Part shown: piece after piece, positions 18,579 to 63,065 of the stretch
Layout of the letters: every line of letters starts with the position of its first letter
How positions within the stretch are numbered: the first letter of the stretch is position 1
Source: an uncultured Gammaproteobacteria bacterium
GTDB lineage: Bacteria > Patescibacteriota > Patescibacteriia > Patescibacteriales > GWC2-42-12
DNA: 64,000 nucleotides
NCBI GenBank assembly: GCA_964560005.1
Contig: CAZLKB010000004.1
Span: 12,112-76,111, forward strand
Direction: 5' to 3'
Notes under the pieces: model-generated
Database searches by the model: none
What the model was told of the DNA's origin: nothing
The model's input: only the letters and a program-made list of their open reading frames with translations
Position numbers and translations under genes: made by a program

Positions 18579-19646
18579 ATGGATTATTTACCCAAAGGCC
18601 AAGCCGTAGTAGAAAGAGATCGAAACAACCGAGTTATCAGAGTAATTGCCGTCTGGCAAGGGAAAAAAATTCCTTTTGTTCAGATCGCCAATAAAAAAGT
18701 TATCAGGGAAGATCACTTAAACCTCTTAAAACCGCTTATACCGGCCGCCCACTACCGGAAAATATACCGCCAGGTCTGTTCAGTTTTCGCGGATAACCAA
18801 ACCAAGACCGAAGACCTGTATTGGCTGGTACGAGACTTAAACCATTGCGGTGTTTTCCTAAATGGAGGGGGTAGATTGGAAGTCACCCGCTGGGACAAAG
18901 AGGCCGGCCAAAGACCGAAACTGGTTCGGCAAAAAGTTAAAGATCTTGACTCGGCAATCCGCATGCAGGGTCATATAATTGATCGATACTCAATCAGCCG
19001 CGAGAGAAGCCTCGGCGAACTGGACCAGCTCGAAAGTATTGATTTGGTAATCACCGAGGCCAACCAGGTACTACAAAATTGGCGATACGCCCAAGCTGGA
19101 GAAAAAGAAAGGCTCCAAAAACGACTGGCTGGCGTAGTGCTCCAGCTGGAAAAATGCCGTAACGAGTTCAAGGTGGCGGCCAGGGTTCAAGCGAAAAAAA
19201 TTATTCCGCTAAAAGACAGCTTGGGCAGACCCAATCCGGGCGCTTTTGCCGCCAGAACCATCGCGGCGTTAAACGACCTGACCGAGAGGATAAAGGAGTT
19301 GAATATAATCATGCCCTATATCGCCATGAGAAAACAACTCTTAATTCTAGCTGACCGATGGTTAAAATCAAAATTCAGACAAGCCTACGGCATTATCACT
19401 CTAATCGCGAGACACCGGGTATTTAAGGACGGGACGATCGCCGGGCATGAAGCGAAAATCATCGGGCAAAAGATCGATCAAGCCGTTGCTTTGCTAAACA
19501 GCGCGGTAATCACGCCGTACTTTGAGAGAGCCCGAGAAGCTCAGGCCGAGCTAAGATCGGCGAAAAAATCACTGCAAGAAAAAAACTACAGATCTTGCGG
19601 GCAAAAACTAAAACTCGCTCTGGAAAATTTAGCCGACGCGGCCTAA
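18579..19646 (+). CDS. Hypothetical, predominantly helical protein with no recognised family
   Basis: 355-aa ORF. It is the only plus-strand gene in the first 23 kb. It has its own candidate promoter and a clear terminator. Confidence 0.6.
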   Translation: MDYLPKGQAVVERDRNNRVIRVIAVWQGKKIPFVQIANKKVIREDHLNLLKPLIPAAHYRKIYRQVCSVFADNQTKTEDLYWLVRDLNHCGVFLNGGGRLEVTRWDKEAGQRPKLVRQKVKDLDSAIRMQGHIIDRYSISRERSLGELDQLESIDLVITEANQVLQNWRYAQAGEKERLQKRLAGVVLQLEKCRNEFKVAARVQAKKIIPLKDSLGRPNPGAFAARTIAALNDLTERIKELNIIMPYIAMRKQLLILADRWLKSKFRQAYGIITLIARHRVFKDGTIAGHEAKIIGQKIDQAVALLNSAVITPYFERAREAQAELRSAKKSLQEKNYRSCGQKLKLALENLADAA

Positions 19647-19700: not shown

Positions 19701-19847
19701 AAATAATTTTAGTGGTAATGCCTTAATTTATTGGCCTGATTTACTCTTCAATCTCCCGTCAAATCCCGCTTATTTGATCTAAACTTAATTTCCTGCCTAA
19801 TAACAAAGTTATGCTTTATTGAAAATTAAATCAATTGGAAATTGTTT

Positions 19848-19877
19848 GTCCGCCAAAGGCGGATCCGCCTCTGGCGG
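19848..19877. repeat. Twin abutting GC hairpins: TCCGCC-nnn-GGCGGA, twice
   Basis: TCCGCCAAAGGCGGA (19848-19862) is immediately followed by TCCGCCTCTGGCGGA (19863-19877). Confidence 0.8.
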
Positions 19878-19907
19878 AAAAATTGAGAATTGAAAATTGA
19901 AAATTTT

Positions 19908-21179
19908 TTATTGGTAATCCCTCAATTTTTTAATACCGGCATGCTTCTGAATCCGCTCTATGGCCTTAGCCTCAATCTGCCTAATACGCTCGCGGGTAAC
20001 ATCAAATTCCCGACCGACTTCTTCTAGTGTATGAGCCACCCCGTCAACCAAACCGAAGCGCAATTCCAATATTTTCTGCTCGCGCGGAGTTAATTCGGCA
20101 ATCACCGCTTTGACATAATCTTTTAGAAGCTGCAAAGCGGCCGAACGATCCGGCGTGACATTTTTTATATCTTCAATAAAGTCCTCCAAAGTTGAATCTT
20201 CATCATCTTCGCCGATGGTAGTTTCTAAAGATATGGTTTCTTGGGATATTTTTATAACATGCCTGACTTTTTCAATATCTTCGCCCATCTCCGAAGCGAT
20301 TTCCTCGGGCAAGGGTTCGCGGCCCAGATCCTGAATCAACTGCCTTTGCACCTGCTGAAATTTATTTATGGTTTCCACCATATGCACCGGAATTCTTATG
20401 GTCCGGGACTGGTCGGCCAGCGCCCGCGTAATCGCCTGCCTGATCCACCAGGTGGCGTAAGTGGAAAATTTATAGCCTTTGCGGTATTCAAACTTCTCCA
20501 CCGCCCGAAACAAGCCGATGTTGCCTTCCTGGATTAAATCCAGCAGGCTCAAGCCTTTAGAGCCGGTAAACTTCTTAGCTATGCTTACCACTAGGCGCAA
20601 ATTAGCTTCAATAATCTTTTTCTCCGCTTCTTTATCGCCTTTTTCCTTGCGCTTGGCTAATTCAATCTCTTCGGCGCTGGATAAGAGCGGCACTTTGCCG
20701 ATTTCCCTTAAGTACATCTGGATGGAATCGGCGCTTAATTCGGAAATATCAAATTTTTTCTTTTCATTAAAACCGATTATTTGCGAAGTTTTCTTTTTGA
20801 TATCGTCGCCGGTGCCTAAAAATCCGCCCGTGTCCTCTATTATCTGAATGCCGTTTTTTTGCAATTCTTCCAAGGTTAATTCATAATCATAGATATATTC
20901 TTCAACTTCGGGAAAGATATGAAGTAATTCAGTCTCGGTGATAAAACCGCGCGACCGGCCTTTAACGATTAAATTTTTCACCATCTCTTCGGTCGGCTTG
21001 ACAACTAGATGCTCTACCGGCGGCTTGACCGTTTTTTTTATCTCTTTCTTGAATTTTGCCTTTTTGATATATCTTTTAAAATTTTTCTTTTTAAATTTAA
21101 TCTTCTTTTTAAATTTCAGCGCCGGCTGGTACTTTCTTAGCTTGGATTTAATATTATTTTTTTTAATTTTTTTCGCCAT
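19908..21179 (-). CDS. rpoD: Primary RNA polymerase sigma factor RpoD with a Lys-rich N-terminal extension
   Basis: 423 aa. Region 2 reads [39 protein letters not shown]. Region 4 reads [33 protein letters not shown]. Confidence 0.95.
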
Positions 21180-26831: not shown

Positions 26832-27527
26832 CTATTGCAATAACTTATTAATTATTGTCTGCATGCCGTCTTCTTTATCTCCGTTGGAAGCGGTAAAATC
26901 TTCAAACGGATAAGCGCCCGGATAAATATTGCCGTTTACGAAGCTCGTGGGCGTGCCGGTCACTCCGGCTCTTTCCCCTTCGGCAATGTCCGTTTCCACT
27001 TTATTTTTATATTTCCCGCTATCCAAGCATTGGCTGAATTTGGCCGCGTCCAAACCTAGATCGCCGGCATCTTTTTTATACTGATCGGCGCTAAGGCGGC
27101 CGGCCTTATTGTCGGCAAACAGTTTGTCATGCATCTCCCAAAATTTACCCTGTTCGGCCGCGCATTCCGAGGCTTCCGCCGCGGGCAGGCCTTCCGGATG
27201 GCCGGCCAGAGGGTAGTGCCTGAAAGCAATAACCACTTTATCTTTAAAATTTTCCTCCACCTGTTTCATGGTGTCGGCGAATTTAGAACAAAACGGACAT
27301 TCAAAATCGCTATAAACTATCATCTTAACCGGAGCATCCAAAGAGCCCCGGACATGATCGGCCGCGTCAATCGGCTTAAGCCCCCCGACATTACCGCCAC
27401 CGTTATTTTGGCCATTACCCTGGCCGTTATCTCTCTGGGTCGAACCGCAGCCGGTTAAAAATACTAAACTACCGGCCATAATTAATGCTAAGGCGATAGT
27501 TAAAATCTTTCTGTTTTGTTTAGACAT
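26832..27527 (-). CDS. DsbA-like thiol:disulfide oxidoreductase, probable lipoprotein
   Basis: 231 aa with a lipobox-like LTGCGS, thioredoxin active site CPFC, and a DsbA-type helical insertion. Confidence 0.7.
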   Translation of the reverse strand: MSKQNRKILTIALALIMAGSLVFLTGCGSTQRDNGQGNGQNNGGGNVGGLKPIDAADHVRGSLDAPVKMIVYSDFECPFCSKFADTMKQVEENFKDKVVIAFRHYPLAGHPEGLPAAEASECAAEQGKFWEMHDKLFADNKAGRLSADQYKKDAGDLGLDAAKFSQCLDSGKYKNKVETDIAEGERAGVTGTPTSFVNGNIYPGAYPFEDFTASNGDKEDGMQTIINKLLQ

Positions 27528-27532
27528 AGAAT

Positions 27533-27605
27533 AAAATTTTTAATTTTCAATTTTTAATTTTTAGATAATTTTTAATATCTTAATTTTAAAAATTAAAAAT
27601 TTTTA
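27533..27605. repeat. AT-word palindromic spacer (family B, TTGAAAAT/TTAAAAAT words)
   Basis: AAATTTTTAATTTTCAATTTTTAATTTTTAG ... CTTAATTTTAAAAATTAAAAATTTTTATT. The arms are roughly reverse-complementary, and the spacer ends at the DsbA-like start codon. Confidence 0.6.
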
Positions 27606-29066
27606 TTATATTTTAGCTTTTTTAAGATGCCATTCGGTCGCTTCTTCAAAACCCCGCCCTACCCTTAAAAGCGTGGCTTCGTCCAGCCTCTTGCCGATCA
27701 ACTGCATACCGACCGGCAAGCCTTTATCAAACCCGCAGGGAATAGATAGAGCCGGTAAGCCGGCCAGCGAAGCGCCGGTCACGAAAATGTCTTCCAAATA
27801 CATCTTTAAAGGATCGTTGGACTGCTCGCCGATTTTAAAAGCCACGGTCGGCTGGGTTGGCGTCAATAAGCAATCAACCGTATCTAATATTTCGTCCATT
27901 TCCTCTTTAATTTTTGTCCTGACTTTTTGCGCCTTAAGATAATAAGCGTCGAAATAACCGGCTGATAAAACATAAGTGCCGAGCATAATTCTTCTCTTAG
28001 CTTCAGCGCCGAACCCCAAACCCCGGCTCTTTGTATAGATACTCATTAAATCGGCCTTAGCCCTATCATCTTGAATACTTAATCCATATTTAATGCCGTC
28101 GAACCTAGCTAAATTGGAACTGATTTCAGCCGGCGTAATAATATAGTATACCGGAATGCCGTATTTGGTGCTAGGCAAACTCACTGTCTTAAACTTAACG
28201 CCTAATTTTTTTAAAGTTTCAATGGCCTGGTCCAAGGCTAGGGCTACGCCCTTATCCGTACCGGCAACGAAATATTCATTTGGCAAGCCGATCGTCATGC
28301 CCTTTATATTCTCCTCCCTGACAAGGGGGGCTGGGGGGGTTATTTCCACCGTGGTGGCGTCATTTTCGTCCCTGCCGGCAATGACTGATAAAACTATGGC
28401 CGCATCCGCCACGGTCTTAGTAAGCGGACCGGGCACATCGGTCGAACTAGTCATAGAAATTAAACCAAAACGAGAGCTTCGCCCATAGGTCGGTTTCAAC
28501 CCGGTAATGCCGCAAAAAGAGGCCGGACACCTTATAGAACCCCCGGTATCCGTACCTAAAGCAAATAAACACATGTCAGTGGCTACTGCCGCGGCGCTAC
28601 CGCCGGACGAGCCGCCGGGCGTGCGCGTAAGATCCCAGGGGTTGTGCGTCGGTCCGAAAGCGCTGTTTTCCGTGGAAGCGCCGTGAGCGAATTCATCTAA
28701 ATTGGTTTTGCCTAACAGCACGGCTCCAGATTGTTTCAATCTTTTTATGATAGTTGCATCGTAAGGCGCGATATAATTTTCTAAAATTTTTGAAGCCGCC
28801 GTGGTTTTTAGCCCCCTGGTCAAAATATTATCTTTAGCCAAATACGGAATGCCCAATAAGGCGCCAGTTTCGCCGCCAGACCTCCGTTCGTCCGCCATTT
28901 TCGCTTCTGCCAGAGCTTCTTTTTCGCAGACAGTCAAACAAGCTTTGACTTTCCCGTCAATCTCATTAATCCGCGCTAAACAAGCCTTAGTTAATTCAAC
29001 CGAGGTAATCTCACCTTTGTCTAATTTCTTGATGGCCTCGGTAATTGTTAATTCATTTAATTTCAT
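27606..29066 (-). CDS. gatA: Glu-tRNA(Gln)/Asp-tRNA(Asn) amidotransferase subunit A
   Basis: 486 aa with the amidase signature GGSSGGSAAAVA and the block GTDTGGSIR. Confidence 0.9.
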   Translation of the reverse strand: MKLNELTITEAIKKLDKGEITSVELTKACLARINEIDGKVKACLTVCEKEALAEAKMADERRSGGETGALLGIPYLAKDNILTRGLKTTAASKILENYIAPYDATIIKRLKQSGAVLLGKTNLDEFAHGASTENSAFGPTHNPWDLTRTPGGSSGGSAAAVATDMCLFALGTDTGGSIRCPASFCGITGLKPTYGRSSRFGLISMTSSTDVPGPLTKTVADAAIVLSVIAGRDENDATTVEITPPAPLVREENIKGMTIGLPNEYFVAGTDKGVALALDQAIETLKKLGVKFKTVSLPSTKYGIPVYYIITPAEISSNLARFDGIKYGLSIQDDRAKADLMSIYTKSRGLGFGAEAKRRIMLGTYVLSAGYFDAYYLKAQKVRTKIKEEMDEILDTVDCLLTPTQPTVAFKIGEQSNDPLKMYLEDIFVTGASLAGLPALSIPCGFDKGLPVGMQLIGKRLDEATLLRVGRGFEEATEWHLKKAKI

Positions 29067-29654: not shown

Positions 29655-31790
29655 TTAAGAAATCAATTTCAAGAACTCCTCCTCGTTAATCACCTTCACC
29701 CCCAGTTTCTGTGCTTTTTCCAATTTACTCCCCGGTTCTACGCCCGCCACCACATAGTCGGTGTTCTTACCGACAAACGACGAAATCTCTCCACCCAGTT
29801 CCCTTATCTTAGCCTTGGCTTGGTCTCTTGTCAATTTTTCCAGAGAGCCGGTCAAAACAAAAATTTTACCAGCTAAAATCTGCTCTTTTTGCCCGGTTAC
29901 CCGCTTAAATTTCAAACCGTTTTTTTCCAATCTATTTAATAATTCAAGATTGCACTTGTCGTGAAACCAGTCAAAAATGCTTTTAGCTACAATCGGTCCA
30001 ACATCGGGCAACCTCTGCAAACCTTCCAAAGTCCAGTTTTGCACAGCCTCTATCAGATCTGTAATCTTCTTACTTCTAACTTCTAACTTCTTACTTAAAA
30101 GCTGTGCCGTTTCTTCGCCCACATGCCTGATGCCAAGGCTATAAATAAATCTAGCCAAATTAATTTCTTTTCTGGCGGTAATGGCTTTGGTTAAATTATC
30201 AGCGCTTTTTTCGGCAAACCTTTCTAATGGTTTTAAATCACCCGTGGTTAACTTATAAAAATCGCTTGAATCACGCACCAAGCCTTGTTTGAATAATTGT
30301 TCAATAATTTTTGGGCCTAAGCCTTCTATATCCATAGCATTCTTTGAGGCCCAATGGCTAAGCTGCCGCAGGCTGACCGCATAGCAATTTTTATTCATAC
30401 AGCGATAAGCCACTTCACCTTTTACTTTTTCCACTTTGCCTGCGCACATCGGGCAATGGCGCGGCACCTTAATTTCTTTTTCCGCGCCCGTGCGTAAATC
30501 AGACAGAACTTTTATGACTTTGGGAATAACATCTCCGGCCCGCTGAATTATCACCGTATCGCCGATTTTTAAACCCAGCCGGTTGATTTCATCTAAATTA
30601 TGCAAAGTCGCCCGGCTAACCGTCACGCCGTAAATCAGCACCGGGCTAAGCACGGCCGTTGGCGTCAGCACCCCGGTCCGACCGACCTGCCAAATTACAT
30701 CTTCAATCTTAGTCGTCGCCTCTTCGGCCGCAAATTTATAAGCCATAATATATCTCGGGCCCTTGCCCACGAATCCCAATTTCGGCCATAAATTCAAGTC
30801 ATTAACCACTATAACTACGCCGTCGCAATCAAATGGAACTTCATCTCGGCGCTTTTCCCAATAATCATGATAACCAATGGCTTCGGCTAAATTCTGACAT
30901 AATTTATTCTGTTTTAGAACTTTTAAACCCAATAATTTTGCCACTTCATGCTCCTGCTCATGATAATTTAAACCTAAATCAGTAGCCAAGGAGTAAATAT
31001 AACAATCCAGTCGCCGCTCTCGCGTCAGCTTTGAATCCAATTGCCTAATTGAACCGGCCGCGGCGTTGCGCGGATTGGCAAAAAGCGGTAAGCCGGCTTT
31101 TTTATTGATTTGATTTAATTCTTTGAAAACTTTATTGGACATGATGGCTTCGCCGCGTACTTCAAGACGGCCTTGCTCCAAGGCTTGATATAATTTATTA
31201 ATTGAACCGTCGGTTAAGCCGATTTTTATTAATTCTTGCCTGTCCGGCCGGCGCAATTTAAGCGGTATGGCGTCAATAGTTTTTAAATTCTGGGTAACTT
31301 CTTCGCCGACTTGGCCATCGCCGCGAGTCGCGCCTGATATAAATTCTCCCTGCTCATATACCAGCGCCACGGCCAAACCGTCCATTTTTAATTCGGCGTA
31401 ATAACCTCTAATTATCCCTCCTTGATAAAGAGCCTGCCCCGCGATTGATGCGGGAGGGTTAGGGGGATTATTAGAAGTAAGAATTTTTTCCATTCTTTTC
31501 TCCCAGTCCATCATATCTTCAGCCGAGAAGGCGTCAAACAGCGACATCATGGGCGAAGAATGCCTAACTTTATTAAATTGCTCTAATGGCTCCCCCGCCA
31601 CCCTTTGCGTAGGCGAATCAGCCGTAATCAGCTCGGGGAATTCGCTTTCCAATTTTTGCAACTCATTTTTTAAACTGTCCAAGGCCGCGTCGGAAATTAA
31701 AGACTTATCCAAGACATGGTAAGCATAGCGATATTTTTCAATCTCTTGTTTTAATTTTTCTATTCTTTTTTTGGCAGCTGATTTATCCAT
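29655..31790 (-). CDS. ligA: NAD-dependent DNA ligase LigA
   Basis: 711 aa with adenylation motif ELKMDGLA, a Zn finger CPMCAGKVEKVKGEVAYRCMNKNC, HhH repeats and a C-terminal BRCT domain (KIFVLTGSL). Confidence 0.95.
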   Translation of the reverse strand: MDKSAAKKRIEKLKQEIEKYRYAYHVLDKSLISDAALDSLKNELQKLESEFPELITADSPTQRVAGEPLEQFNKVRHSSPMMSLFDAFSAEDMMDWEKRMEKILTSNNPPNPPASIAGQALYQGGIIRGYYAELKMDGLAVALVYEQGEFISGATRGDGQVGEEVTQNLKTIDAIPLKLRRPDRQELIKIGLTDGSINKLYQALEQGRLEVRGEAIMSNKVFKELNQINKKAGLPLFANPRNAAAGSIRQLDSKLTRERRLDCYIYSLATDLGLNYHEQEHEVAKLLGLKVLKQNKLCQNLAEAIGYHDYWEKRRDEVPFDCDGVVIVVNDLNLWPKLGFVGKGPRYIMAYKFAAEEATTKIEDVIWQVGRTGVLTPTAVLSPVLIYGVTVSRATLHNLDEINRLGLKIGDTVIIQRAGDVIPKVIKVLSDLRTGAEKEIKVPRHCPMCAGKVEKVKGEVAYRCMNKNCYAVSLRQLSHWASKNAMDIEGLGPKIIEQLFKQGLVRDSSDFYKLTTGDLKPLERFAEKSADNLTKAITARKEINLARFIYSLGIRHVGEETAQLLSKKLEVRSKKITDLIEAVQNWTLEGLQRLPDVGPIVAKSIFDWFHDKCNLELLNRLEKNGLKFKRVTGQKEQILAGKIFVLTGSLEKLTRDQAKAKIRELGGEISSFVGKNTDYVVAGVEPGSKLEKAQKLGVKVINEEEFLKLIS

Positions 31791-33543: not shown

Positions 33544-34233
33544 TTACTGCGCATCTATTAAGCCAAAAAAATTTACTTCCACCGTGGCCGTTGAATTATT
33601 GGTGCTTTCTATTAAGCTAATAATAGCGCTATTAGCCGGGCGGTTAAAGACATTCCTGGTGTTGATGTAGACAGCCGGGTCGGGCGGGAAAAAAATAATA
33701 TCTAACTTAGGGACGTCATCATTATACTTTAAAAAATTAATAGTTACTCCGGCCGTTAAATGCTTAATTTCCATTCCCTCGCCGTCGTCATATTCATGAT
33801 TTCCATCAGGATCACCGGCCACAACGCCGCCATCCGCAAAAATAATATATTGAGAAGGGTTTGCCTTATCAAAATGCACGCCCCAACCACCCGTGGGCGT
33901 ATCGGTTGCATTATAAGTTTTTGAACCTAAGCTGTAATTCTGCGCCAGTCTAATATCCGAAGCCAGTTTTTGCTTCGTCATATTCAGTCCGGAACGCTTA
34001 TCTGCGCCGCGATAATTAACCATAAAAATACTGCTGATTAAAGCAACAATAAAAATACTAACCAATAATTCAATTAGGGTGAACCCCGTTAAATTGCGGC
34101 TTAGCCGCACTCCGGCTTGGCGGAGATTTAACCTGCCTACCCGCCTACCGGACAGGCAGGCCGGACAGGCAGACGGAGTAAAGCCGGGGTGATTGCTTAA
34201 TATTTTATTTTTATCTCCTTTCAACTGTCTCAT
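33544..34233 (-). CDS. Prepilin-type protein (FimT/GspH-like pseudopilin)
   Basis: The cleavage motif is NLTG|FTLIELLVSIFIVALI. The first 41 codons are made of GC-rich hairpin repeats. An alternative GTG start at 34108-34110 would give a normal 9-aa leader (V/M)RLSRNLTG. Confidence 0.6.
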   Translation of the reverse strand: MRQLKGDKNKILSNHPGFTPSACPACLSGRRVGRLNLRQAGVRLSRNLTGFTLIELLVSIFIVALISSIFMVNYRGADKRSGLNMTKQKLASDIRLAQNYSLGSKTYNATDTPTGGWGVHFDKANPSQYIIFADGGVVAGDPDGNHEYDDGEGMEIKHLTAGVTINFLKYNDDVPKLDIIFFPPDPAVYINTRNVFNRPANSAIISLIESTNNSTATVEVNFFGLIDAQ

Positions 34234-34267: not shown

Positions 34268-34429
34268 ATAAACAATTTCTAATTTTCAATTTCTCCCCCT
34301 CCACTAAAACTACGGAGGATAAATAATTTCTAAATAATGTTTTAATGTTTTAATTTCTTAATTGAAACATTAAATCATTGAAAATTGTTTGAAAATTGAG
34401 AATTGAAAATTGAAAATTATTATTGTTTA
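34268..34429. repeat. AT-word palindromic spacer (family B), about 160 nt
   Basis: The left arm is ATAAACAATTTCTAATTTTCAATTTC (34268-34293). The right arm is GAATTGAAAATTGAAAATTATTATTGTTTAT (34399-34429). An internal hairpin CCTCC..GGAGG is present. Confidence 0.6.
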
Positions 34430-35998: not shown

Positions 35999-36027
35999 AA
36001 CTATATGGATTATACTTTTAATCTCCC

Positions 36028-36127
36028 GGTCTTGGCTAAATTTATTTATTTTTGAAGCGAGGAATGACCGGCCGGCACATAATGAATTTGATCCGCAGCT
36101 AAAAAATAAATAAATTTAGCCAAGACC
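36028..36127. repeat. 100-nt hairpin with a perfect 26-bp stem between pilD and the adhesin-like gene
   Basis: GGTCTTGGCTAAATTTATTTATTTTT (36028-36053) is the exact reverse complement of 36102-36127. The 48-nt loop contains GACCGGCCGGC. Confidence 0.9.
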
Positions 36128-36153
36128 TGATTAGCTGACTGACTATTATATAT

Positions 36154-37020
36154 TTAAAGCAAACCAAAATACCAATCTAATATCCGCGTGTGCCAAAATA
36201 GGCTGATTATCGTGCCGGCCGCTAAAAAAACTCCCAAAGGAACTTCCGAACCCCATTTCTTCTTACCGGTTAAAATTAAGCCCACGCCGACTACGGAACC
36301 GATAAAATATGAAATGATAATCGCGAGTATTACCACCGGCCAACCCAGCGCTAATCCCATGAGCAGTCCCAGCCGGATATCTCCCCCGCCGATCCATTTA
36401 CCTTGAGAAATCAGGAACTGAATTAAGAAAAAACCACCTCCTATTATACCAGAAATTAAGAGATTCCACAAACTAAAACCCAACAATAAATTCATGGCTA
36501 AAACCGCCAAACAAGCAGGTATTGTTACCTTATCCAAAATCTCATACCAGCGCAGATCATAGATAAAAACCACTATCATCACGGAAATTATGAACCAGTC
36601 TCGGAATAATTGAATTATTGATTTTGAATTTTGAATTTTGATTGAATCATTAATAATTAAATAATTAAATATTGATTCAAAATTAAAAATTCTAAATTCA
36701 AAATTTTGCATAAATGCTACGACAAATAATAAGCCCGTTATTAGTTCCACCGTCGGGTACTGCCAGGAAATCGGCTGCCTACAATGCCGGCACTTGCCTT
36801 TAAGCAGAATAAAACTCAAAACCGGTATATTATCATACCAATTGATTTGTTTCTTGCACTTCGGGCAATAAGAGCGATTCATCAGGCTTTCTTTCTGATG
36901 CAAACGCCAAATTAAACAATTTAAAAACGAGCCGATGATTAGGCCGAAAACAAAAACAAACATTAAGATTATTGGCACAGGCATAAATTTTCCGCAATTA
37001 AGCACCGGCTTATAGTTCAA
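36154..37020 (-). CDS. pilD: Prepilin peptidase PilD (A24 family) with an N-terminal Zn-ribbon domain
   Basis: CPKCKKQINWYDNIPVLSFILLKGKCRHCRQPISWQYPTVEL, plus the A24 Asp motifs IYDLRW and GGGDIRL. The likely start is M13 (ATG 36982-36984). Confidence 0.85.
   Translation of the reverse strand: MNYKPVLNCGKFMPVPIILMFVFVFGLIIGSFLNCLIWRLHQKESLMNRSYCPKCKKQINWYDNIPVLSFILLKGKCRHCRQPISWQYPTVELITGLLFVVAFMQNFEFRIFNFESIFNYLIINDSIKIQNSKSIIQLFRDWFIISVMIVVFIYDLRWYEILDKVTIPACLAVLAMNLLLGFSLWNLLISGIIGGGFFLIQFLISQGKWIGGGDIRLGLLMGLALGWPVVILAIIISYFIGSVVGVGLILTGKKKWGSEVPLGVFLAAGTIISLFWHTRILDWYFGLL
36610..36709. repeat. AT-word palindromic element lying in frame inside pilD
   Basis: The DNA GATTTTGAATTTTGAATTTTGATTGAATCATTAATAATTAAATAATTAAATATTGATTCAAAATTAAAAATTCTAAATTCAAAATTTTGC is an imperfect palindrome. 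It encodes QNFEFRIFNFESIFNYLIINDSIKIQNSKSII. Confidence 0.7.
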
Positions 37021-37099: not shown

Positions 37100-37127
37100 C
37101 AAAAGCACCCCTTTCTGAGGTGCTTTG
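37100..37127 (-). terminator. Terminator after ftsZ
   Basis: AGCACC (37104-37109) pairs with GGTGCT (37119-37124), followed on the minus strand by TTTTG. Confidence 0.55.
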
Positions 37128-40860: not shown

Positions 40861-41904
40861 GGACTTAATCATCATGTTAAAAATATCAATATAATCTAAA
40901 ATATTGTTCTCGCCCGGATTATAAGCCAAAGTAAAAACATAGTCTTGATTTAAATCCATTAAATATAAAGTCAGGCCGTCCAGATTTTTTATCCCCTGCC
41001 AATCAGGCGCGCTCAATCGGTCAGCCTCGTTGATTTCAGTTACGGCCAGTTGATCCATATACCATTGATCCAACGGCTGTTGAGTCGGGTTAGCCTGAAC
41101 AATGATCTGTAAAAATTGATTGTCGCCGCTTTGGAACATGATTGAATCGTCGCCGCCATTTACGCTCATCTGCCAATCTTTAAGATAAAGCAAGCTATAA
41201 TTAAAGGTTTGATTTTGATATAACGCTATATTCGGGTTGTCGATTAATTTAGCGGTGCTGGCCGGATCGTATAAATTCAACAATTCGGCGCCATCCGGAT
41301 AACTATCGCCATCCGTATCCGGGGTTGAAGTTGAAGTGGCCAATAAAATTTCTTCCGCGTCAGACAGGCCGTCTAAGTCGCTATCAAGCGAAGGGATTAG
41401 GCCGATAGGTAATTCTTGCTCAATGATTTCCTGGGTGCTAGTGGCGGTGGAAGTGGCTAAGCCATCGTCAGTCGGCAAGATAGGCGGCTCAATATCCGTC
41501 AGAGTTGAAGTCTCCGCGTCATCCGAGCCTTGATTGATTTCCGGTTGAACCTCCTCGGTGGTGTCGGGCTGGCTGACTTCCGCCACCGGCTGTTCCTGAT
41601 TAACGGAAACGGCCGGTTGTTTAAACAGATAAAAATATAATAGCGCCGAAGCTAATAATAAAAATACCACGCCGCCGCCGATAATTATCATACCGGTAGT
41701 CTTGGCGCTCTGGTTATTTACCGAGGCGTGGCGGAACCGTTCCGGCATGGTATGAATAACGATGTTGTCAATTTGAATCGGCTGTTCCACTACCGGCTGA
41801 GGTGTTAAGCCTTCAAGGTCGGACGGCTGGGTTGTTTTTTTCTTAAAAAAACTTAGAGGATTAAGCATAGTATTAATTTTCAAATCCCTATTTTCAATTT
41901 TCAA
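40831..41904 (-). CDS. Single-pass membrane protein with thrombospondin-type-3-like DxDxDG repeats
   Basis: It has a TM helix, an acidic linker, the repeats DSDLDGLSDAEE and DTDGDSYPDGAE, and a C-terminal domain. The first 12 codons are repeat words, so the likely start is M13 (ATG 41866-41868). Confidence 0.6.
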   Translation of the reverse strand: MKIENRDLKINTMLNPLSFFKKKTTQPSDLEGLTPQPVVEQPIQIDNIVIHTMPERFRHASVNNQSAKTTGMIIIGGGVVFLLLASALLYFYLFKQPAVSVNQEQPVAEVSQPDTTEEVQPEINQGSDDAETSTLTDIEPPILPTDDGLATSTATSTQEIIEQELPIGLIPSLDSDLDGLSDAEEILLATSTSTPDTDGDSYPDGAELLNLYDPASTAKLIDNPNIALYQNQTFNYSLLYLKDWQMSVNGGDDSIMFQSGDNQFLQIIVQANPTQQPLDQWYMDQLAVTEINEADRLSAPDWQGIKNLDGLTLYLMDLNQDYVFTLAYNPGENNILDYIDIFNMMIKSFTLSNSASL

Positions 41905-42014
41905 ACAATAACCAATGAATTAATGACTTAATTTTCAAACAAGGATGATTATGCTTTGAAAATTTAGACATTGAAAATTTATTGAAAATTGAAGCTTGAA
42001 AATTGAAAATTAAT
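41888..42014. repeat. AT-word palindromic spacer (family B)
   Basis: CTATTTTCAATTTTCAAACAAT (from 41888) faces TTGAAAATTTATTGAAAATTGAAGCTTGAAAATTGAAAATTAAT (to 42014). Confidence 0.6.
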
Positions 42015-42045
42015 ATAATTTATTTCTAAAAAAGTCCATGCGTTA

Positions 42046-42741
42046 TTATTTTATTTCCAGTAATTTCCCCGGTCCTAGAGGATTATAGCCCTGCGTAACT
42101 TCGGCGCCATCCTGATAGCCGTCGCCGTCGGTGTCCGCGCTCAAAGCATCGGTTTTATAAACCTTGGCCTCTTCCCGGTCGGTTAAGCCGTCATTGTCCG
42201 TGTCCGGATTATAAGAATCCGTACCTAAATCGGCCTCTTCCCGGTCGGTTAAACCGTCTTGATCGCTGTCCGGCGAAGGCTCCTCCACTACCGGCTGAAT
42301 CGGCTCAATTATATTATCAGCCTCCTCCACTTCTTCGCCGGCCGAGGTAATCTCTGAAATTTCTTGAGCATCGGGCTGTTCTTGAATAAACGAATTATTA
42401 ACCGCCTGGTTGCTCTTAACCGCCAGCTTTAAACCCACATAGCCTCCGGCCACAATTATTATTAGGCCGCCGAATAATAGGCCAAAAATCATAATTTTAT
42501 TGCTTTTCCAGCCGGTTGCCGGCGGCAAGACGGTACCGCGCGGCGGAATGTTATCCTGTCCGGGCCTGAAAACTTCGGGCTTAACGCTCTTATCCACTTC
42601 GGCGAAAATATCTTCTGTTCTCGCCGAGGGGACCGGCGCGGTTGACGCGGCTGGCGCCGGCGCAACCGGCCTATACGACGGGCCGAGCGGCTTGGTATCG
42701 GCCGTAGGCGCGGCGTTGTTGTTGTCTAGTTGGTCAAACAT
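42046..42741 (-). CDS. Single-pass membrane protein with three thrombospondin-type-3-like repeats
   Basis: 231 aa with a Pro/Ala-rich N-terminus and a TM helix. The repeats are DSDQDGLTDREE, DTDNDGLTDREE and DTDGDGYQDGAE. Confidence 0.65.
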   Translation of the reverse strand: MFDQLDNNNAAPTADTKPLGPSYRPVAPAPAASTAPVPSARTEDIFAEVDKSVKPEVFRPGQDNIPPRGTVLPPATGWKSNKIMIFGLLFGGLIIIVAGGYVGLKLAVKSNQAVNNSFIQEQPDAQEISEITSAGEEVEEADNIIEPIQPVVEEPSPDSDQDGLTDREEADLGTDSYNPDTDNDGLTDREEAKVYKTDALSADTDGDGYQDGAEVTQGYNPLGPGKLLEIK

Positions 42742-45700: not shown

Positions 45701-48700
45701 AGCTTTGCGCATTGGTCCGGGTTAGCATCTGGATCGCAACAACAAGTTCCGCAGGGAGGAGTGGAAGGAATATTACCGGTATCAGTTAGGCAAGAAAAAC
45801 CAACACATCTATTAATATCACAGCTTGGCGAAGCGTTGTAAGCGGAGCAATTTTCGCCGAAATCCGGCTTCTGGCATTGATTATCGCAATTATCTGTCTT
45901 ATAGTCGCCATCTTTTACCTTCGTAGTGTCGCAACTATTAGCATTAACACCGGTGCCGCAATTATAATAAGCGCAATAATTATAAGGCGGTTCAGAGACA
46001 TAATCTTCGCCGCCGCGACAAGCATTACTAATTTTGGCGTCAACACAGCAAGAGCCGACGCCGGCGGTAGAACAAGCCAAGGCTGTAGTTAACTGCGCGC
46101 AATCCTTACAAACTCCTTGCCCGCCGGCGGCCGAAGTATCGCAATATTTTCCGCTGGTGCCGGAACAATTGCAAGCGTCGTTGCTAGCGGATATATCTAC
46201 CAGGTTATTGGTGCCTCTGACCGTACAGCCGGTGCAAAGTCCAAAAGTGTCGTCCGTACTGCTAGTGCCGCTGCCGCAAGTGCCTTGGCACTTTAACGGC
46301 GCGCAACAATCCTCCGCGTCATGGCCGGCGCGGCAACAACAGTCGCAACTGGCGCTGTTGCTTGGCGCGACGGCGGCGCATTTGTTATTACCGGTGCAGA
46401 TTGAGCCGGCCGGGCAGACATTAGTATCAACCGCGCAAACACCGGCTCCATCCTGATTCAAACAATTAAAACCAATATCGCATGAAAAGCAAGTCAAAGT
46501 ATTTTCTGTACATTTACCGCCTCCGATATTAGTCCAGCCGGTCGGGCAGGAATAATTAGTGCTGATTTGCCATTTACTATTAACACAAATTGCTTCAACA
46601 TCATGGCTATTTACATCTTGAACCGTTTTTGGTAAATCGCAAGTTGGATCAATCTTTTTAACGCATCTATTGATTTTTTCTTCATATTCGCATAAATTTA
46701 ACTGGCAATATCCGCTCGTACCGCAAACATCGCCATTTTGTTTGCCCAGACAGCTGCCTGCCCCGCCAACGCATTTTGAACACGACGCCAAACTATTACA
46801 GCTAAAGTCGCAATCGCCGACGATGCGCGAACCGCTGTAAAGCTCGTTGACCTCGTCCGAGCTTAAAGCCCGGTTATATACGCGCACATCGTCAATAAGG
46901 CCGTTGAAAAATCTACTGCCATTGCCATTGGCGAACCAAGCTCGTCCGATCTGTACCGTTGAACCAGAATCATCACCCGGACCGCTGAGTCTTTCCCATT
47001 CCTTAGAACCATTCACATATAATATTATGTTGCTTGAGGTGTAGACGGTTACGACATGGTACCACTGGCCTGCACTAACCGGTTTTCCGGTGTCTGCTTC
47101 CGCGTTTCCGACATGCATGTTCCATTTTCCTAGCCTTACTTCGGTTCCTTTATCCCAAACCGCGTTATCGGTACAAAGAAAACAGCCCGGCTCATATATA
47201 GATTCTGGCTTCACCCAAGCGGCGTAAGATATCGGTTCATCATCAATTTTAAGCGGTGTATCAACATAAGTATTTGATCCGTTAAACTTAAGCGCCTGGC
47301 CGATTCTGCCGGGCACAATATTAGAGCCTGTTAAATTATTGAGTGTACCGTCCTGATCCTGGCCGGAACTGTCAGAGGCTTTCTTTCCGGCTATGTCTAT
47401 ATCCGCGCTGTCAAAAGTCCACCAGCCGATCAATCCGTTGCTTAATGTACTGCCGCTACTAACCGAGCATTTGCCCGGCGAATTGGGACAAAAATAAGTA
47501 TCCGCGCATAAATTGCCGTAACCGGAGCAGGATTCAGCCGGAGCCGGTATGCATAGACAAGAATTATTACAGGTAAAACCAGGATCGCAGGCACCCGCTT
47601 GACATCCGGGTTCATTCACATTTGTATCGCAGGTGGAAACTTTACAAATACAGTCCTGGTTACAGTAATAACCAGGATCGCAGGCACCCGCTTGACATCC
47701 GGGTTCATTCACATTTGTATCGCAGGTGGAAACTTTACAAATACAGTCCTGGTTACAGTAATAACCAGGATCGCAGGCACCCGCTTGACATCCGGGTTCA
47801 TTCACATTTGTATCGCAACGCACTGGTTCTTGGCAGAGGCAAGAAGTAGTATTACAAACATACGGAGAAGTACATTTAGATTGAGTTATATCGCAATATC
47901 CTTTTTTAGCGCCATTATAACAAGGGTCGCCCGGACCAGGTTCAGTGTCAAAATCCCACTCATAAACCGAAGAATTATATTCGGGAAAGCAGGCTTCTTG
48001 GACGTCTACTCCGTCTCTGCATCTGCCTACGAATGGAGTGCCTTTAGGGCAGCAAAAATTAGTCGCGCCGCATTCGCTATCAATTTTACAGGTACCAACC
48101 GTGAAATTCAGGCCATTGCCGACCACTTCAGGGCTGTTTTTAACCACTCTTACCGGACCGGTAACCGCTTGTTGATGAACCGTAGTAACTGATTTGTCCG
48201 GATCCTGCCCCCAACTCTTGATGGCCGCTCCGGATTGATCATAATTTAAATAAAATCTTACCTTGCTATTAGTATCTTGAACTCCAAAATACTCGCCCCA
48301 TAAACTTACATCATCACCAACCTGCCCCATAATTGGCTTAATTTTACATAAGCTGGGCGCAAGCGGTTTATCTTGCTCAAAACTAAATTGCGATGGAGTT
48401 AACTTACTGGTGTCAATTAACCAGTTTTGGCCGCCGCTTTTAGCGATCTCCATAGCTATTAAACCTGATACTGTATTTTTTATTTCCGCCGGCACCTTGA
48501 CTATAACTTGCTTATCGCTCCAGATTGAATCGGCGCAGACTTCCGGAAAATTAAAATCCGCTTCCACTCCTTCTTTGACTGTACCCGATCCTATTTCTGC
48601 GCCGAAATATACCTTGCTATTTCCCCTAGTTGCTCCGAAGCCCTTGCCTCGAATCGTTACATATTGGCCTGTAGCCCCGTCAACCGGATCAAAAGAAGTA

Positions 48701-56224: not shown

Positions 56225-56264
56225 AAAATGTAGAGACGCAATGCATTGCGTCTCTACATCTTTT
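56222..56264. terminator. Bidirectional terminator: a perfect 32-nt palindrome between convergent rel and yqeY-like genes
   Basis: ATGTAGAGACGCAATG|CATTGCGTCTCTACAT (56228-56259), flanked by A6 and T4 runs. Confidence 0.8.
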
Positions 56265-56748
56265 ATTTCCCTAATAATTTTTTAACTAAGGCACCGACCC
56301 TATTGCCATCGGCTTTGCCCTTAACCTTGGCCATGGCCCGGCCCATGACTTTGCCGAAATCCTGAACTCCGGCAGCGATTATTTCTTTGATGATTTTTTC
56401 CAGCTCCTCGTCATTCAACTGCGCCGGCAGATATTTTTCTAAAATTTTTATTTCGTGCGTTTCCTTGTCAACCAAGTCCTGGCGCTTACCCTGCTGGTAA
56501 GCCTCCACTGAATCACGCCGTTTTTTTATCTCGCTGGAGATAACTTCGGTTATCTGGCCATCGGTCAGCTCAGCCCTGCCGTCTTGCCTGCCCGCCGAAG
56601 CCTCGGCGAAGGCGGGCCGCAAGCTAATTTCTTTGTTGCGCATAGCCGCGATTAACATCCTTAAGGTTGACAGCTCTTCGGTACGCCTTTCTTTCATGGC
56701 GATTTTCAGATCCTGATTAATTTGTTCTGATAATTTAGGCATAAACAT
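56263..56748 (-). CDS. GatB/YqeY-domain protein
   Basis: 161 aa with the YqeY-type blocks LKIAMKERR, EIKILEKYLP and GKVMGRAMAKVKGKADG. It sits downstream of rpsU, as in many Firmicutes. Confidence 0.8.
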   Translation of the reverse strand: MFMPKLSEQINQDLKIAMKERRTEELSTLRMLIAAMRNKEISLRPAFAEASAGRQDGRAELTDGQITEVISSEIKKRRDSVEAYQQGKRQDLVDKETHEIKILEKYLPAQLNDEELEKIIKEIIAAGVQDFGKVMGRAMAKVKGKADGNRVGALVKKLLGK

Positions 56749-56752
56749 ATTT

Positions 56753-56972
56753 TGTCATTGCGAGGAGCGCCTTTAGCCCCGGGCTTGACCCGGGGGACGA
56801 AGCAATCTCGCTCTCTGTCATTGCGGGCTCCCGCCCGCATCGCCAGCGAAGCGTGGCGGGCGCGGTGACCCGCAATCCACCCCGCACTTTGCGGGGCGGC
56901 TCGCCTCCCGCCCTAGGCGGGCAGGTCGGCTTTAAGGCCGGAATGACAATAAGACGGTCGCTCGCAATGACA
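56753..56972. repeat. 220-nt GC-rich MITE-like element with perfect 12-nt terminal inverted repeats
   Basis: TGTCATTGCGAG (56753-56764) is the reverse complement of CTCGCAATGACA (56961-56972). The interior is a chain of GC hairpins. These are ATTGCGGG..CCCGCAAT, CCCGCC..GGCGGG, CCCCGC-actt-tGCGGGG at 56880-56896, and CCCGCC-cta-GGCGGG at 56907-56921. Confidence 0.8.
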
Positions 56973-58803: not shown

Positions 58804-58814
58804 AGTAGAAAATT

Positions 58815-58920
58815 TAAAATGAAAATCTCAAAATGAAAAATGACAATGTAAAATTTAAAATTAGCTAATTCATAATTTTACATTTTAAACTGTCATTTTT
58901 AATTTTGATTTTTCAACTTT
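58815..58920. repeat. AT-word palindromic spacer (family A) between lepB and hisS
   Basis: It is centred on the perfect palindrome AATTAGCTAATT (about 58859-58870). The arms are TAAAATGAAAATCTCAAAATGAAAAATGACAATGTAAAATTT and AATTTTACATTTTAAACTGTCATTTTTAATTTTGATTTTTCAAC. Confidence 0.7.
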
Positions 58921-58923
58921 ACA

Positions 58924-59487
58924 TTAATATGAGTATTCCGGCGCGGAAAAAACATTAATCCGATTAAACGGCCAACCGCGGAGTAGCACTCGCCCGGTGA
59001 TATACTTCTCGTTCACCGCGCCGAAACTCCGGGAATCTTTAGAAGAATTGCGGTTATCGCCCAAGACATAAAATTCACTATCGCTTAAAGTAATAGTTTC
59101 TTCATTTAAGCCGTAAGTCCTTAAGTCCGATGACAAATATTGTTCTTCCAGCTGAAAACCGCTCGGCTGCGCTTGATTATAGATATAAACAAAACCGTCT
59201 TTAATCTGAATTTTCTCTCCGGGTAAGCCGATGATTCTTTTTATGAAAAATTCTTCCGGGTTCCTGGGGTAGCGGAAAACCACGATATCTCCTCGCACCG
59301 GCTCGTGAAAACGATAGCTGATTTCATCAATAATTAGGTATTCTTTATCATAAAAATTCGGCTCCATGGAAGCGCCCTTAACATAGAAGGGCTGAATTAA
59401 ATAATATCTGATAGGGATAATGATGGCTAAAGAAATTACTACGACTTTAACTAATTCAAAAATATAAGCTAAAAATTTTTTTAACAT
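58924..59487 (-). CDS. lepB: Signal peptidase I
   Basis: 187 aa with the catalytic Ser box GASMEPNF, the Lys box RGDIVVF..KRIIGLPGE, and GDNRNSSKDSR. Confidence 0.9.
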   Translation of the reverse strand: MLKKFLAYIFELVKVVVISLAIIIPIRYYLIQPFYVKGASMEPNFYDKEYLIIDEISYRFHEPVRGDIVVFRYPRNPEEFFIKRIIGLPGEKIQIKDGFVYIYNQAQPSGFQLEEQYLSSDLRTYGLNEETITLSDSEFYVLGDNRNSSKDSRSFGAVNEKYITGRVLLRGWPFNRINVFSAPEYSY

Positions 59488-61517: not shown

Positions 61518-62942
61518 ATGGCAGATACAAAAAAGAAAAAAAAGCCTCTCCCCCTGGTCGTTATCTTCGGTCGAACCAATGTGGGCAAATCCACTCTATT
61601 TAATTGCTTGGTTGAAAAACGCCAAGCCCTGGTTTCTGATATCCAAGGAACTACCAGAGACAGTAATTTAGGGGAAATCACCTGGCGCGGCCATAAATTC
61701 GCCATGGTTGATACCGGCGGCATGATTGATTTCAAACATTTATCCGATAAAACCAAGGCAACCGATGAAATTGATAACCAAGTTCAAAAACAAGCCTTTA
61801 AATACTTAAACCGGGCTGATTTAGTTTTATTTTTACTTGATAATAAATCAGGCCTATTGCCCCAAGACAAAGAATTGGCGCTGTTAATCAAAAAAAATAT
61901 CAATGCCGAAAAAGTAATCTTAACGGTAAACAAAGCCGATGCTCCGAAGGATCGGCTGAAACTTTCTGAATTTTATAAATTAGCTCTGGGTGAACCCTTT
62001 CCGGTTTCGGCCGCCAACGGTTCGGGTACGGGCGATTTACTGGATATTATTGTTAAAAAGCTTAAATTTAGAAACATCAAAAGCGACAAGGATAAGAATT
62101 ACTTAACTAAAGAAGCGCCGATTGAAGACAACCCGATTAAGGTCTGCATCATCGGCCAGCCCAATGTAGGTAAGTCCAGCTTGCTTAATTCACTGCTGGG
62201 CTACGAGCGGGTGATTGTCAGTCCGGTACCGCATACTACCCGCGAACCCCAGCACACTAAAATAATTTATGAAAACCGTCCCCTGCTGTTAATCGATACC
62301 GCCGGCATCAGCCACAAAGGCGCTAAAACCTACGGTTTGGAAAAATTCGGCATTGCCAAATCCTTGTCCGCCTTGTCAAAAAGCGATATTGCTTTATTGG
62401 TTTTGGATATGAGCCTTGAAATTACCCATCAAGACGCCAGGCTGGTGGAAGAAATCGTCAGTCATAAAAAAAGCTTTATTTTCATCGCCAATAAGTGGGA
62501 TCAAGTGCCGGAGCGAGATACAAAAAAATATACCGATTACATCTACGACAAAATGCCGTTCGCCCGCTTCGCGCCCATCCAATTTATTTCCGCCAAAACC
62601 GGCGAAAAAGTAAAAAAAATCTTTGATCTGATCTTAAAAATTGATCAGCAAAAAAAATTAGAATTAAGCGACTCCCAACTGTCTCATTTTCTGTCGCGCA
62701 TCGTCAGAGTACACCGCCCGGTTAAAGGCAAAGGCGTTAAACACCCTCATATCCGCGACTTTACCCAGATTAGCGCCAACCCGCCGAAATTTGAATTAAA
62801 AATCGGTCCTAAGGAAGACCTACATTTTTCCTATATCCGTTTTATTGAAAACCGCTTACGGGAAACTTACGGCTTTTTAGGCACTCCCCTAACCGTGCAA
62901 GTGGCCAAGAATAAAACCGCGCATGGAAAACACCAGGAGTAA
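61518..62942 (+). CDS. der: Ribosome-biogenesis GTPase Der (EngA)
   Basis: 474 aa with two GTPase domains (GRTNVGKST and GQPNVGKSS, each with DTGG/DTAG and NKxD) and a C-terminal KH-like domain. Confidence 0.92.
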   Translation: MADTKKKKKPLPLVVIFGRTNVGKSTLFNCLVEKRQALVSDIQGTTRDSNLGEITWRGHKFAMVDTGGMIDFKHLSDKTKATDEIDNQVQKQAFKYLNRADLVLFLLDNKSGLLPQDKELALLIKKNINAEKVILTVNKADAPKDRLKLSEFYKLALGEPFPVSAANGSGTGDLLDIIVKKLKFRNIKSDKDKNYLTKEAPIEDNPIKVCIIGQPNVGKSSLLNSLLGYERVIVSPVPHTTREPQHTKIIYENRPLLLIDTAGISHKGAKTYGLEKFGIAKSLSALSKSDIALLVLDMSLEITHQDARLVEEIVSHKKSFIFIANKWDQVPERDTKKYTDYIYDKMPFARFAPIQFISAKTGEKVKKIFDLILKIDQQKKLELSDSQLSHFLSRIVRVHRPVKGKGVKHPHIRDFTQISANPPKFELKIGPKEDLHFSYIRFIENRLRETYGFLGTPLTVQVAKNKTAHGKHQE

Positions 62943-63062
62943 ATTTTCAATTCTCAATTCTCAATTTTCAAACAATGTTATAATTCTTCAATTTCTTAAT
63001 TAACTAATTGAAAATTAAATCCTTGAAAATTGTTTGAAAATTAAAAATTAAAAATTAAAAAT
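62941..63062. repeat. AT-word palindromic spacer (family B) between der and pth
   Basis: AAATTTTCAATTCTCAATTCTCAATTTTCAAACAAT faces GAAAATTGTTTGAAAATTAAAAATTAAAAATTAAAAATTTT. It ends at the pth ATG. Confidence 0.7.
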
Positions 63063-63065
63063 TTT

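Follow-up and report, generated by a model that had tools for sequence, protein, structure and literature searches.

A heptanucleotide-array palindrome translated in a predicted outer loop of PilD is probably an old, inherited feature of a Patescibacteria lineage

In-frame 'selfish' palindromes are classically a Rickettsia curiosity. The Rickettsia palindromic elements (RPEs) are palindromic repeats inserted in frame in protein-coding (housekeeping) genes (PMC10969869). Other short repeats that can be read as protein include the tandem 7-nt units (AAGACTC) of the NeuO gene of E. coli K1, which specify a peptide with a 7-residue period and give a full-length product only if the frame is kept (PMC13001214), the PARCEL repeats, which are coding repeats with DNA dyad symmetry in membrane-associated proteins (PMC2996958), and the TAACTGA repeats of Beggiatoaceae, Cyanobacteria and Bacteroidetes, which form abundant short 7-nt arrays near gene ends and occasionally in open reading frames (ORFs) (PMC4679880). 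More generally, inverted repeats are enriched directly after stop codons (PMC13155455). Here we describe a 64-kb stretch of contig CAZLKB010000004.1 (the window) in which an AT-rich palindrome built of 7-base repeats is translated within pilD, the gene encoding a prepilin peptidase / N-methyltransferase. The RPE is its closest described analogue. The analysis brings a comparable phenomenon to ultrasmall Patescibacteria, where it occupies one hot spot, in >100 species, within a membrane protease essential for type IV pili. The account we favor, at a probability of roughly 60%, is that the segment is an inherited, old, translated heptanucleotide-array palindrome lying in a permissive extracytoplasmic loop between transmembrane helices 2 and 3 (TM2 and TM3) of PilD.

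The element makes up a 36-codon linker, M92-F127 (MQNFEFRIFNFESIFNYLIINDSIKIQNSKSIIQLF), at 36604..36711 of the minus strand, with a GC content of 0.13 and a minimum free energy of -21.1 kcal/mol; at 36600-36699 the GC content is 0.15, versus 0.43 for the window. Its AT-rich hairpin comprises 96 bases of 7-base repeats. The original prediction, made from the letters of this stretch, had placed an imperfect AT-rich palindrome near 36660, and an inverted-repeat search bore this out, resolving 46-nt arms at 36613-36658 and 36660-36705 that are 78% complementary about a center at 36659. The RNA fold of the element (-22.6 kcal/mol, z = -3.98) was matched in stability by 0/200 dinucleotide shuffles, and the segment is the sole strong low-GC hairpin island inside any long ORF of the window. 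Chance similarity in AT-rich coding DNA, against which the original prediction had asked to be checked, is excluded by shuffles of three kinds: of the fold, of the BLASTN match described below and of the stop-free frame.

The peptide specified by this linker is a transparent read-out of its arrays. The first arm on the sense strand (36660..36705, minus) consists of TTTTGAA-type units and encodes NFEFRIFNFESIFNY, and the second (36613..36658, minus) consists of TTCAAAA-type units and encodes the NDSIKIQNSKSII segment, such that translation runs through (TTTTGAA)n, which reads NFEF*IL, and then through the reverse complement (TTCAAAA)n, which reads SKFKIQN and is free of stops whatever the frame. 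An AGA (Arg) codon (36691..36693, minus) stands where a perfect TTTTGAA array would have placed a TGA in frame, and it leaves the stem with a mismatch. Other orthologues, whose linkers read NYELRIMNY (GAA TTA AGA), show the same TGA-to-AGA repair, where (TTATGAA)n would give NYEL*IM; elsewhere (TTCATAA)n, or FIIHNS*, is found as IIHDSLFII, (TTACGAA)n reads LRITNYE and (TTTTCAA)n reads FSIFNFQ. The odd peptide noted originally is thus translated exactly as quoted, with 0 stops in its reading frame (P = 0.02 for a stop-free frame in shuffles of the element), whereas the two remaining sense frames contain 2 and 7 and the three antisense ones 6, 3 and 6. Among 61 AT-rich orthologue linkers (1576 codons) there are 0 in-frame stops versus 172 and 176 in the other two frames. 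The absence of in-frame stops argues that the segment is under selection to be translated rather than skipped. A candidate -1 frameshift site (A AAU UUU), located where the linker begins, was dropped, as the motif is absent from other linker classes and overlaps the stem.

The host gene looks functional and otherwise intact, as had been proposed. It lies at 36154..36984 on the minus strand and encodes 276 aa from an ATG at 36984, while the listed ORF extends to a TTG at 37020 (36154..37020, minus; 288 aa, with translation ...YPTVELITGLLFVVAF MQNFEFRIFNFESIFNYLIINDSIKIQNSKSIIQLF RDWFIISVMIVVFIYDLRW...). The ATG at 36984 is the probable start of PilD, and database protein P0001 (276 aa) is identical to PilD read from it. 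On the 288-aa ORF, Pfam models A24_N_bact (PF06750; residues 24-105, E = 2e-34) and Peptidase_A24 (PF01478; residues 142-246, E = 1.5e-11) flank the linker, which fills the gap between them; the only other match in the Pfam scan was a sub-threshold one to SLX1_C. In an alignment of 41 orthologues, the zinc-site cysteines C40, C43, C65 and C68 (CxxC...CxxC), the DLRW motif D143 L144 R145 W146, which contains the first catalytic Asp, and the second catalytic Asp, D202 (GGGD), are invariant, and it is this invariance that makes pilD look functional. By sequence, PilD has the features of MEROPS family A24 (PilD/GspO type, bifunctional), namely both domains, the CxxC...CxxC pattern and two Asp residues with GxGD. 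TM2 (TVELITGLLFVVAF; 36712..36753, minus; AlphaFold helix 75-94) lies directly upstream of the element in the orthologue alignment, TM3 (RDWFIISVMIVVFIY) and the codon of D143 (36556-36558) follow it at 36556..36603 (minus; AlphaFold helix 113-145), and the D202 codon (36379..36381, minus) lies downstream, where the gene is intact.

Since the four-cysteine domain and both catalytic Asp residues of PilD are cytoplasmic (PMC3584216), the TM2-TM3 segment must face outside; by analogy with other PilD proteins, the element must therefore occupy an outward-facing, extracytoplasmic loop that separates the cytoplasmic zinc/methyltransferase domain from the peptidase domain. A permissive outer loop would tolerate nearly any in-frame peptide. 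AlphaFold2 run with the orthologue alignment gave a mean predicted local distance difference test score (pLDDT) of 82, with residues 97-112, the core of the insert, below 50, and prolonged the TM3 helix through the second-arm peptide SIKIQNSKSIIQLF. A PDB sequence search and a Foldseek search with the AlphaFold model returned no usable homologue for PilD.

To place the element in its lineage we drew orthologues from a protein search, 80 species-representative genomes, 80 metagenome contigs and five contig look-ups, and based hot-spot and linker-length statistics on 135 non-redundant Patescibacteria (Falkowbacteria-type) loci. Four relatives with 75-82% protein identity (P0002-P0005) have this 36-codon element in an identical position, equal in length and boundaries; in two further relatives it comes with either a 4-codon duplication or a GC-rich insert nested in it. 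Across the 135 loci, the TM2-TM3 linker ranges from 10 to 76 aa (median 25) with a median GC content of 0.26 versus 0.40 for the gene, and linkers hold 7-nt-array peptides in several 'dialects', some with GC-rich hairpin cores (NFSALGGSASGGQF, PPAALRAAGQA, IRQLADN). Deep outgroup orthologues have plain linkers of 10-15 aa without repeats, compared with 36 aa here, in agreement with the original prediction that this linker is usually some 25 residues shorter. As to whether orthologues carry a homologous segment of conserved protein sequence, which the original prediction had named as evidence against an insertion, such a segment is found only within the near clade, where it is the DNA and not the protein that is conserved. 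When 15 hairpin-bearing linkers from three length classes were compared (MAFFT/RNAalifold), they aligned through shared flanks and three GAAT/ATTC stems, with 21 shared pairs, and the 36-codon class differed from the 25- and 29/30-codon classes mainly by ~26-33 extra nt at the hairpin apex. This cross-class alignment indicates common ancestry with apical growth, rather than independent insertions, at least for the 25-, 29/30- and 36-codon classes. The pilD element therefore predates this genome and is neither private nor recent.

Several nested variants were seen among these loci. The longest linker (L136, 76 aa, -98.6 kcal/mol) holds a large nested GC-rich insert, that of L153 holds one reading NLPLPAGEGWGEGASL with a second copy 6 kb away, and that of L165 (P0019) has SQLCLAWQAQG nested in the NFEF element. 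In P0017, P0019, P0024, P0029 and P0065 a second site of variable insertion lies between TM1 and the zinc finger (IPLTPFVKGGNKW or IPLIPVSAKGGSASGGKGANKW); the window's pilD lacks this site. In L002 (2935-2969) the site holds a copy of the GC hairpin found in the TM2-TM3 linker of the same gene. In L161, an 82%-identical relative, small genes with a 23S_rRNA_IVP domain lie beside pilD and gatA (10908-11144 and 19005-19301) and are absent at the syntenic positions of the window.

A 7-nt unit in the gene of a surface organelle, where a one-unit change shifts the frame, could in principle make a contingency locus in which slippage would switch pilD, and hence all type IV pilin maturation, off and on, for which neuO offers a precedent (PMC13001214), and some orthologues do contain 4-6 perfect units. 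The longest perfect run in the window's pilD is 3.0 units, however, and all of the ~150 orthologue loci, including 15 inspected manually, are in frame. The length classes (18, 25, 29/30 and 36 codons) also persist unchanged across deep divergence, whereas 66% of neuO alleles are out of frame. We consider phase switching the least probable of the accounts weighed here, and very improbable in absolute terms.

The concentration of arrays at this one site is pronounced. Scanning all 135 loci (1.46 Mb) for AT-rich, period-7 arrays, we found 36 in the 10.2 kb of pilD linkers (3.5 per kb), as against 13 in the 1.14 Mb of all other long ORFs (0.011 per kb) and 30 in the 0.32 Mb of non-ORF sequence (0.094 per kb). 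The density in pilD linkers is thus ~300-fold that in other ORFs. The pilD linker is a lineage-wide hot spot, unlike what random insertion into permissive loops would give. A separate in-frame heptanucleotide array lies at 30066-30096 in the helix-hairpin-helix region of the gene for NAD-dependent DNA ligase (ORF 29655..31790, minus); it reads AAGTAAGAAGTTAGAAGTTAGAAGTAAGAAG (SKKLEVRSKK) in the window, is present as (GTCAAAA)n in relatives (L161 16573-16610, L017 16263-16303, L140 8491-8524) and may be a second conserved hot spot.

Spacers between co-directional genes of the window contain AT-rich hairpins of AATTTTN units, usually starting right after the stop codon, and the original prediction held that pilD contains the same words. 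These include, none with an assigned strand, a hairpin of TTTTCAA/TTGAAAA dialect that immediately follows the stop codon of the gene lying downstream of pilD (34322..34428; 50.6 bits with a hidden Markov model (HMM) of the family), one filling the spacer of two co-directional genes (27533..27606), one made up of two inverted half-elements (41867..42021) and the best match to the pilD element (62939..63065; 77% over 84 nt); a further AATTTTN hairpin lies at 58801-58937. As AATTTTCAA-array hairpins, family copies span 34354-34428, 41867-42021, 62939-63064, 19817-19909 and 27534-27606 in the window and 13300-13369 in L161. The best BLASTN match of the pilD element (62982-63065) scores 62.5 bits versus 36.8 +/- 4.7 (maximum 49.7) for 60 dinucleotide shuffles, the two align with a common unit structure of 7-nt AATTTTN arrays, and TTTTGAATTTTGAA occurs 28 times with up to 2 mismatches versus 4.5 expected. 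The claim of shared words stands to this extent. The dialects differ, however, with TTTTGAA/TTCAAAA units in pilD versus TTTTCAA/TTGAAAA in the intergenic family and G in pilD where intergenic copies have C or T, and the intergenic-family HMM scores the pilD copy at 10.3 bits (E = 0.04 over the 64 kb). The resemblance exceeds chance and base composition, with the pilD copy a weak member of the family.

The original prediction went on to suggest that such elements are, or were, mobile. For the family this is plausible: intergenic copies are 82-88% alike between the window's genome and L161 yet occupy spacers that are not orthologous, an arrangement that implies turnover or mobility, and further copies of the linker insert lie within the same locus in L002 (82% over 72 nt), L153 (87.5% over 48 nt) and L023. 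The hairpin family, and its GC-rich cores especially, behaves as dispersed, possibly mobile DNA. These copies, together with the palindromic architecture and the words in common with intergenic hairpins, are what a recent insertion of a currently mobile AT-rich palindromic element into this genome's pilD would have in its favor, an element akin to RPEs or to MITEs, the miniature transposable elements with inverted repeats. For the pilD copy itself the claim is not supported. The relatives that carry the same element have synonymous sites ~45% diverged, no near-identical copy was found elsewhere in the window (the best match being the 77% noted above), and no empty-site allele occurs among close relatives, all of which carry the element, with short-linker forms only in more distant orthologues. 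Nor did we see any sign of recent movement of the window's pilD copy, or any recognizable flanking duplication in its AT-rich flanks, of which no formal test was made. We therefore regard recent insertion as improbable. Recent copying from local intergenic elements was likewise set aside, since the excess of 11-mers that linker DNA shares with its own over other genomes is modest (4.8 versus 3.1 per 10 kb) and not specific for the window, which ranks 17 of 73.

Other hairpins stand out in the window. A long inverted repeat at 36026-36130 (GGTCTTGGCTAAATTTATTTATTT ... AAATAAATAAATTTAGCCAAGACC) fills the spacer from the pilD stop to the next gene and gave only weak, below-threshold hairpin-type (miRNA-like) matches in Rfam. 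The most stable local structure seen is an intergenic GC-rich double hairpin at 56811-56910 (-53 kcal/mol, GC ~0.76). Nested GC-rich palindromes at 34085-34175 (-42 kcal/mol), at the 5' end of ORF 33544..34233 (minus), read PSACPACLSGRRVGRLNLRQAGVRLSRNLTG just before the pilin motif GFTLIELLV and represent either an in-frame N-terminal extension or a 5' untranslated region element of a type IV pilin gene. Long ORFs also contain strong hairpins rich in GC (-35 to -51 kcal/mol, GC 0.65-0.75), at 56535-56625 (ORF 56263..56748, minus), 42620-42715 (ORF 42046..42741, minus), 3165-3255, 27135-27225, 46295-46385 and 28565-28655, one of them reading SLRPAFAEASAGRQDGRAEL; these are probably the 'GC-type in-frame insertions' to which the original prediction compared the pilD element.

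Within pilD, the element stands out for conservation at positions that do not alter the protein. Third codon positions in the 36-codon class are identical at 0.75-0.89 in the element versus 0.48-0.65 in the rest of pilD (10/10 pairs), and in a sliding profile codons 55-84 form a block with sharp edges, at 0.82-0.93 against 0.39-0.53 on either side. We also determined the share of codon pairs for one amino acid in which the codon is identical. This same-amino-acid codon identity is 0.91 in the element versus 0.54 in the core for the 36-codon class to which the window belongs, 0.83 versus 0.50 for the 25-codon hairpin class, 0.89 versus 0.49 for the 29/30-codon hairpin class and 0.80 versus 0.48 for an 18-codon class that is a direct array with no hairpin; in a decayed 25-codon class it is 0.60 versus 0.58. 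Members of the decayed class have lost the repeat, risen in GC content and acquired a peptide that drifts faster than the core (amino-acid identity 0.55 versus 0.82); where repeat or hairpin persists, conservation extends to all three codon positions. GC content at third codon positions (GC3) is 0.06 in the element, as against 0.41 when the same amino acids are counted elsewhere in pilD (p = 3e-5). Saturation with A and T was rejected as a neutral cause of slow change, for A/T third positions alone still give 0.86 in the element versus 0.55 in the core. Because the element does not exceed the core in amino-acid identity while its synonymous codons are conserved, constraint appears to act on the nucleotides rather than on the peptide. 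A smaller second peak of third-position conservation (0.80-0.83 versus ~0.5 elsewhere, among the five closest orthologues) lies at the codons for LWNLLISGIIGGGFFLIQ (~36400-36455).

This pattern weighs against the possibility that the loop peptide is itself selected, for example as an amphipathic extracellular segment, with the palindromy a side effect of low-complexity AT-rich coding. The alternation of aromatic with polar residues, the predicted extension of the TM3 helix through the second-arm peptide and a frame that is open everywhere are in keeping with such a role. Synonymous codons are nevertheless more conserved than amino acids, the peptide is wholly different between classes and dispensable in short-linker orthologues, pLDDT is below 50 in the segment core, and the palindrome far exceeds shuffles; selection on the peptide is accordingly quite unlikely in our estimation, slightly more so than recent insertion.

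The nucleotide-level constraint bears more directly on a second possibility, that the array or hairpin works as a cis-acting nucleic-acid element within the pilD ORF, with the peptide a by-product. Such an element might be a binding site for a heptamer-recognizing protein, or an mRNA pausing, processing or stability signal like the intergenic hairpins. The conservation of synonymous sites and of all codon positions in the repeat-retaining classes, the low GC3 and the occupation of the site in most of the ~135 orthologues are as this account would have them; the conservation of the direct-array class, which lacks a hairpin, would further mean that the words matter and not only the stem, and heptamer repeats have been proposed as regulator sites elsewhere (TAACTGA; PMC4679880). 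Yet pilD remains intact in several lineages from which the repeat or hairpin has gone (L101, L090, L084 and the short forms L088/P0093/P0120), and the dialects differ widely between lineages. Moreover, there is no covariation, Rfam covariance models gave no match on the element at E <= 1, and a promoter/terminator scan found nothing on it, the only terminator-like site being at 37102-37126, outside the gene; on the sense strand no U-tract follows the stem, which is AT-rich and lacks a G+C core. We regard a cis-acting role as possible, though clearly the less probable account. A fuller version, in which the array or hairpin is a conserved signal kept in pilD across a class-level Patescibacteria lineage, shares a factor or mechanism with the intergenic hairpins and tunes PilD production, we hold more doubtful by a small step.

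Under the reading we prefer, that of an old, inherited palindrome in a permissive loop, a hairpin like the lineage's intergenic spacer fillers would have entered the loop in an ancestor, or would have arisen there by the same repeat-generating process. The TM2-TM3 loop would tolerate almost any peptide, the peptide serving as a passive spacer, while selection on PilD would purge frameshifts and stops and a nucleotide-level force, either selection on the array or hairpin itself or repeat-specific correction, would keep the array. In some genomes, GC-rich hairpins of dispersed families later became nested within it. A number of points weigh against this account. Ancestral insertion and in-situ origin are not distinguishable, and the marginal HMM match of the pilD copy leaves common origin with the intergenic family suggested rather than demonstrated. 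The AlphaFold loop is of low confidence and the topology is taken from the literature on other PilD proteins. Synonymous conservation could arise from local mutational bias or a repeat-correction process as an alternative to selection. In the 36-codon class there are no compensatory changes, the few substitutions mostly breaking pairs, and covariation in the 25-codon class was not above shuffles; across classes a single pair shows a class-level AU/UA swap. Counts of G-U versus A-C mismatches (6:8 in the 36-codon class, 32:16 in another) give no consistent strand signal. With pairing high and compensatory change not above controls, we make no claim of a covariation-supported structure.

As a practical point, odd low-complexity stretches in proteins of the candidate phyla radiation (CPR), such as NFQFSIFNFQ, NYELRIMNY and NFEFRIFNFE, become recognizable as translated heptamer arrays and not annotation errors. 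Type IV pili are the organelle on which these episymbionts depend. If the constraint is functional, pilD would hold an embedded regulatory signal, and the abundant AT-rich intergenic hairpins would gain an experimental handle; were the cis-acting account true, the segment would be a dual-coding element whose nucleotide function outranks its peptide and which tunes the enzyme maturing all type IV pilins. If the constraint is mutational, the locus would offer a natural experiment on how repeat correction and reading-frame selection jointly shape a coding palindrome. Our searches of the literature turned up no account of heptamer arrays or palindromes read in frame in the pilD of Patescibacteria.

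The comparison with described systems places the element closest to the RPEs, with which it has in common a short in-frame palindromic repeat, an intact host protein, a predicted permissive region and related intergenic copies (PMC10969869). Of the features that mark RPE- or MITE-like elements, it has both a long hairpin and an in-frame position in an intact ORF. RPEs, however, are dispersed families of ~100-150 bp with a conserved consensus in many unrelated genes, whereas the pilD element occupies one site lineage-wide, its unit is a 7-nt array of changing dialects with a weak match to the intergenic family, and there are 13 other in-ORF arrays in 1.14 Mb. With the NeuO gene it shares in-ORF tandem 7-nt units, a 7-residue periodic peptide and dependence of the full-length product on the frame, but NeuO arrays are long, perfect, hypervariable (3-53 units) and often out of frame, while that of pilD is short, imperfect, palindromic, length-stable and in frame. 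PARCEL repeats likewise combine coding with dyad symmetry in membrane-associated proteins; they are tandem 25-residue motifs in ORFs without known function, as against a 7-nt unit and a 7-aa period in pilD, and the Pfam scan of PilD, which returned no repeat-domain family, does not support membership. The TAACTGA repeats, similar as short 7-nt arrays near gene ends and occasionally within ORFs, differ in unit and phyla and are direct repeats just upstream of starts, whereas here inverted pairs follow stops and one is fixed in pilD. Finally, intergenic hairpins related to the element occupy spacers immediately behind stop codons in the manner of repetitive extragenic palindromic (REP)-type or terminator hairpins, although their stems are AT-rich with no G+C core or U-tract, and the pilD copy lies mid-gene and is not called as a terminator. 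Further unusual traits of the pilD element are its peptides, transparent read-outs of 7-nt arrays with single-base stop repairs, and a synonymous-site conservation that exceeds protein conservation. As judged from these sequences, the pilD element differs from all of the systems compared in keeping to a single site of a single gene throughout a class-level lineage, with changing dialects and conservation at synonymous sites.

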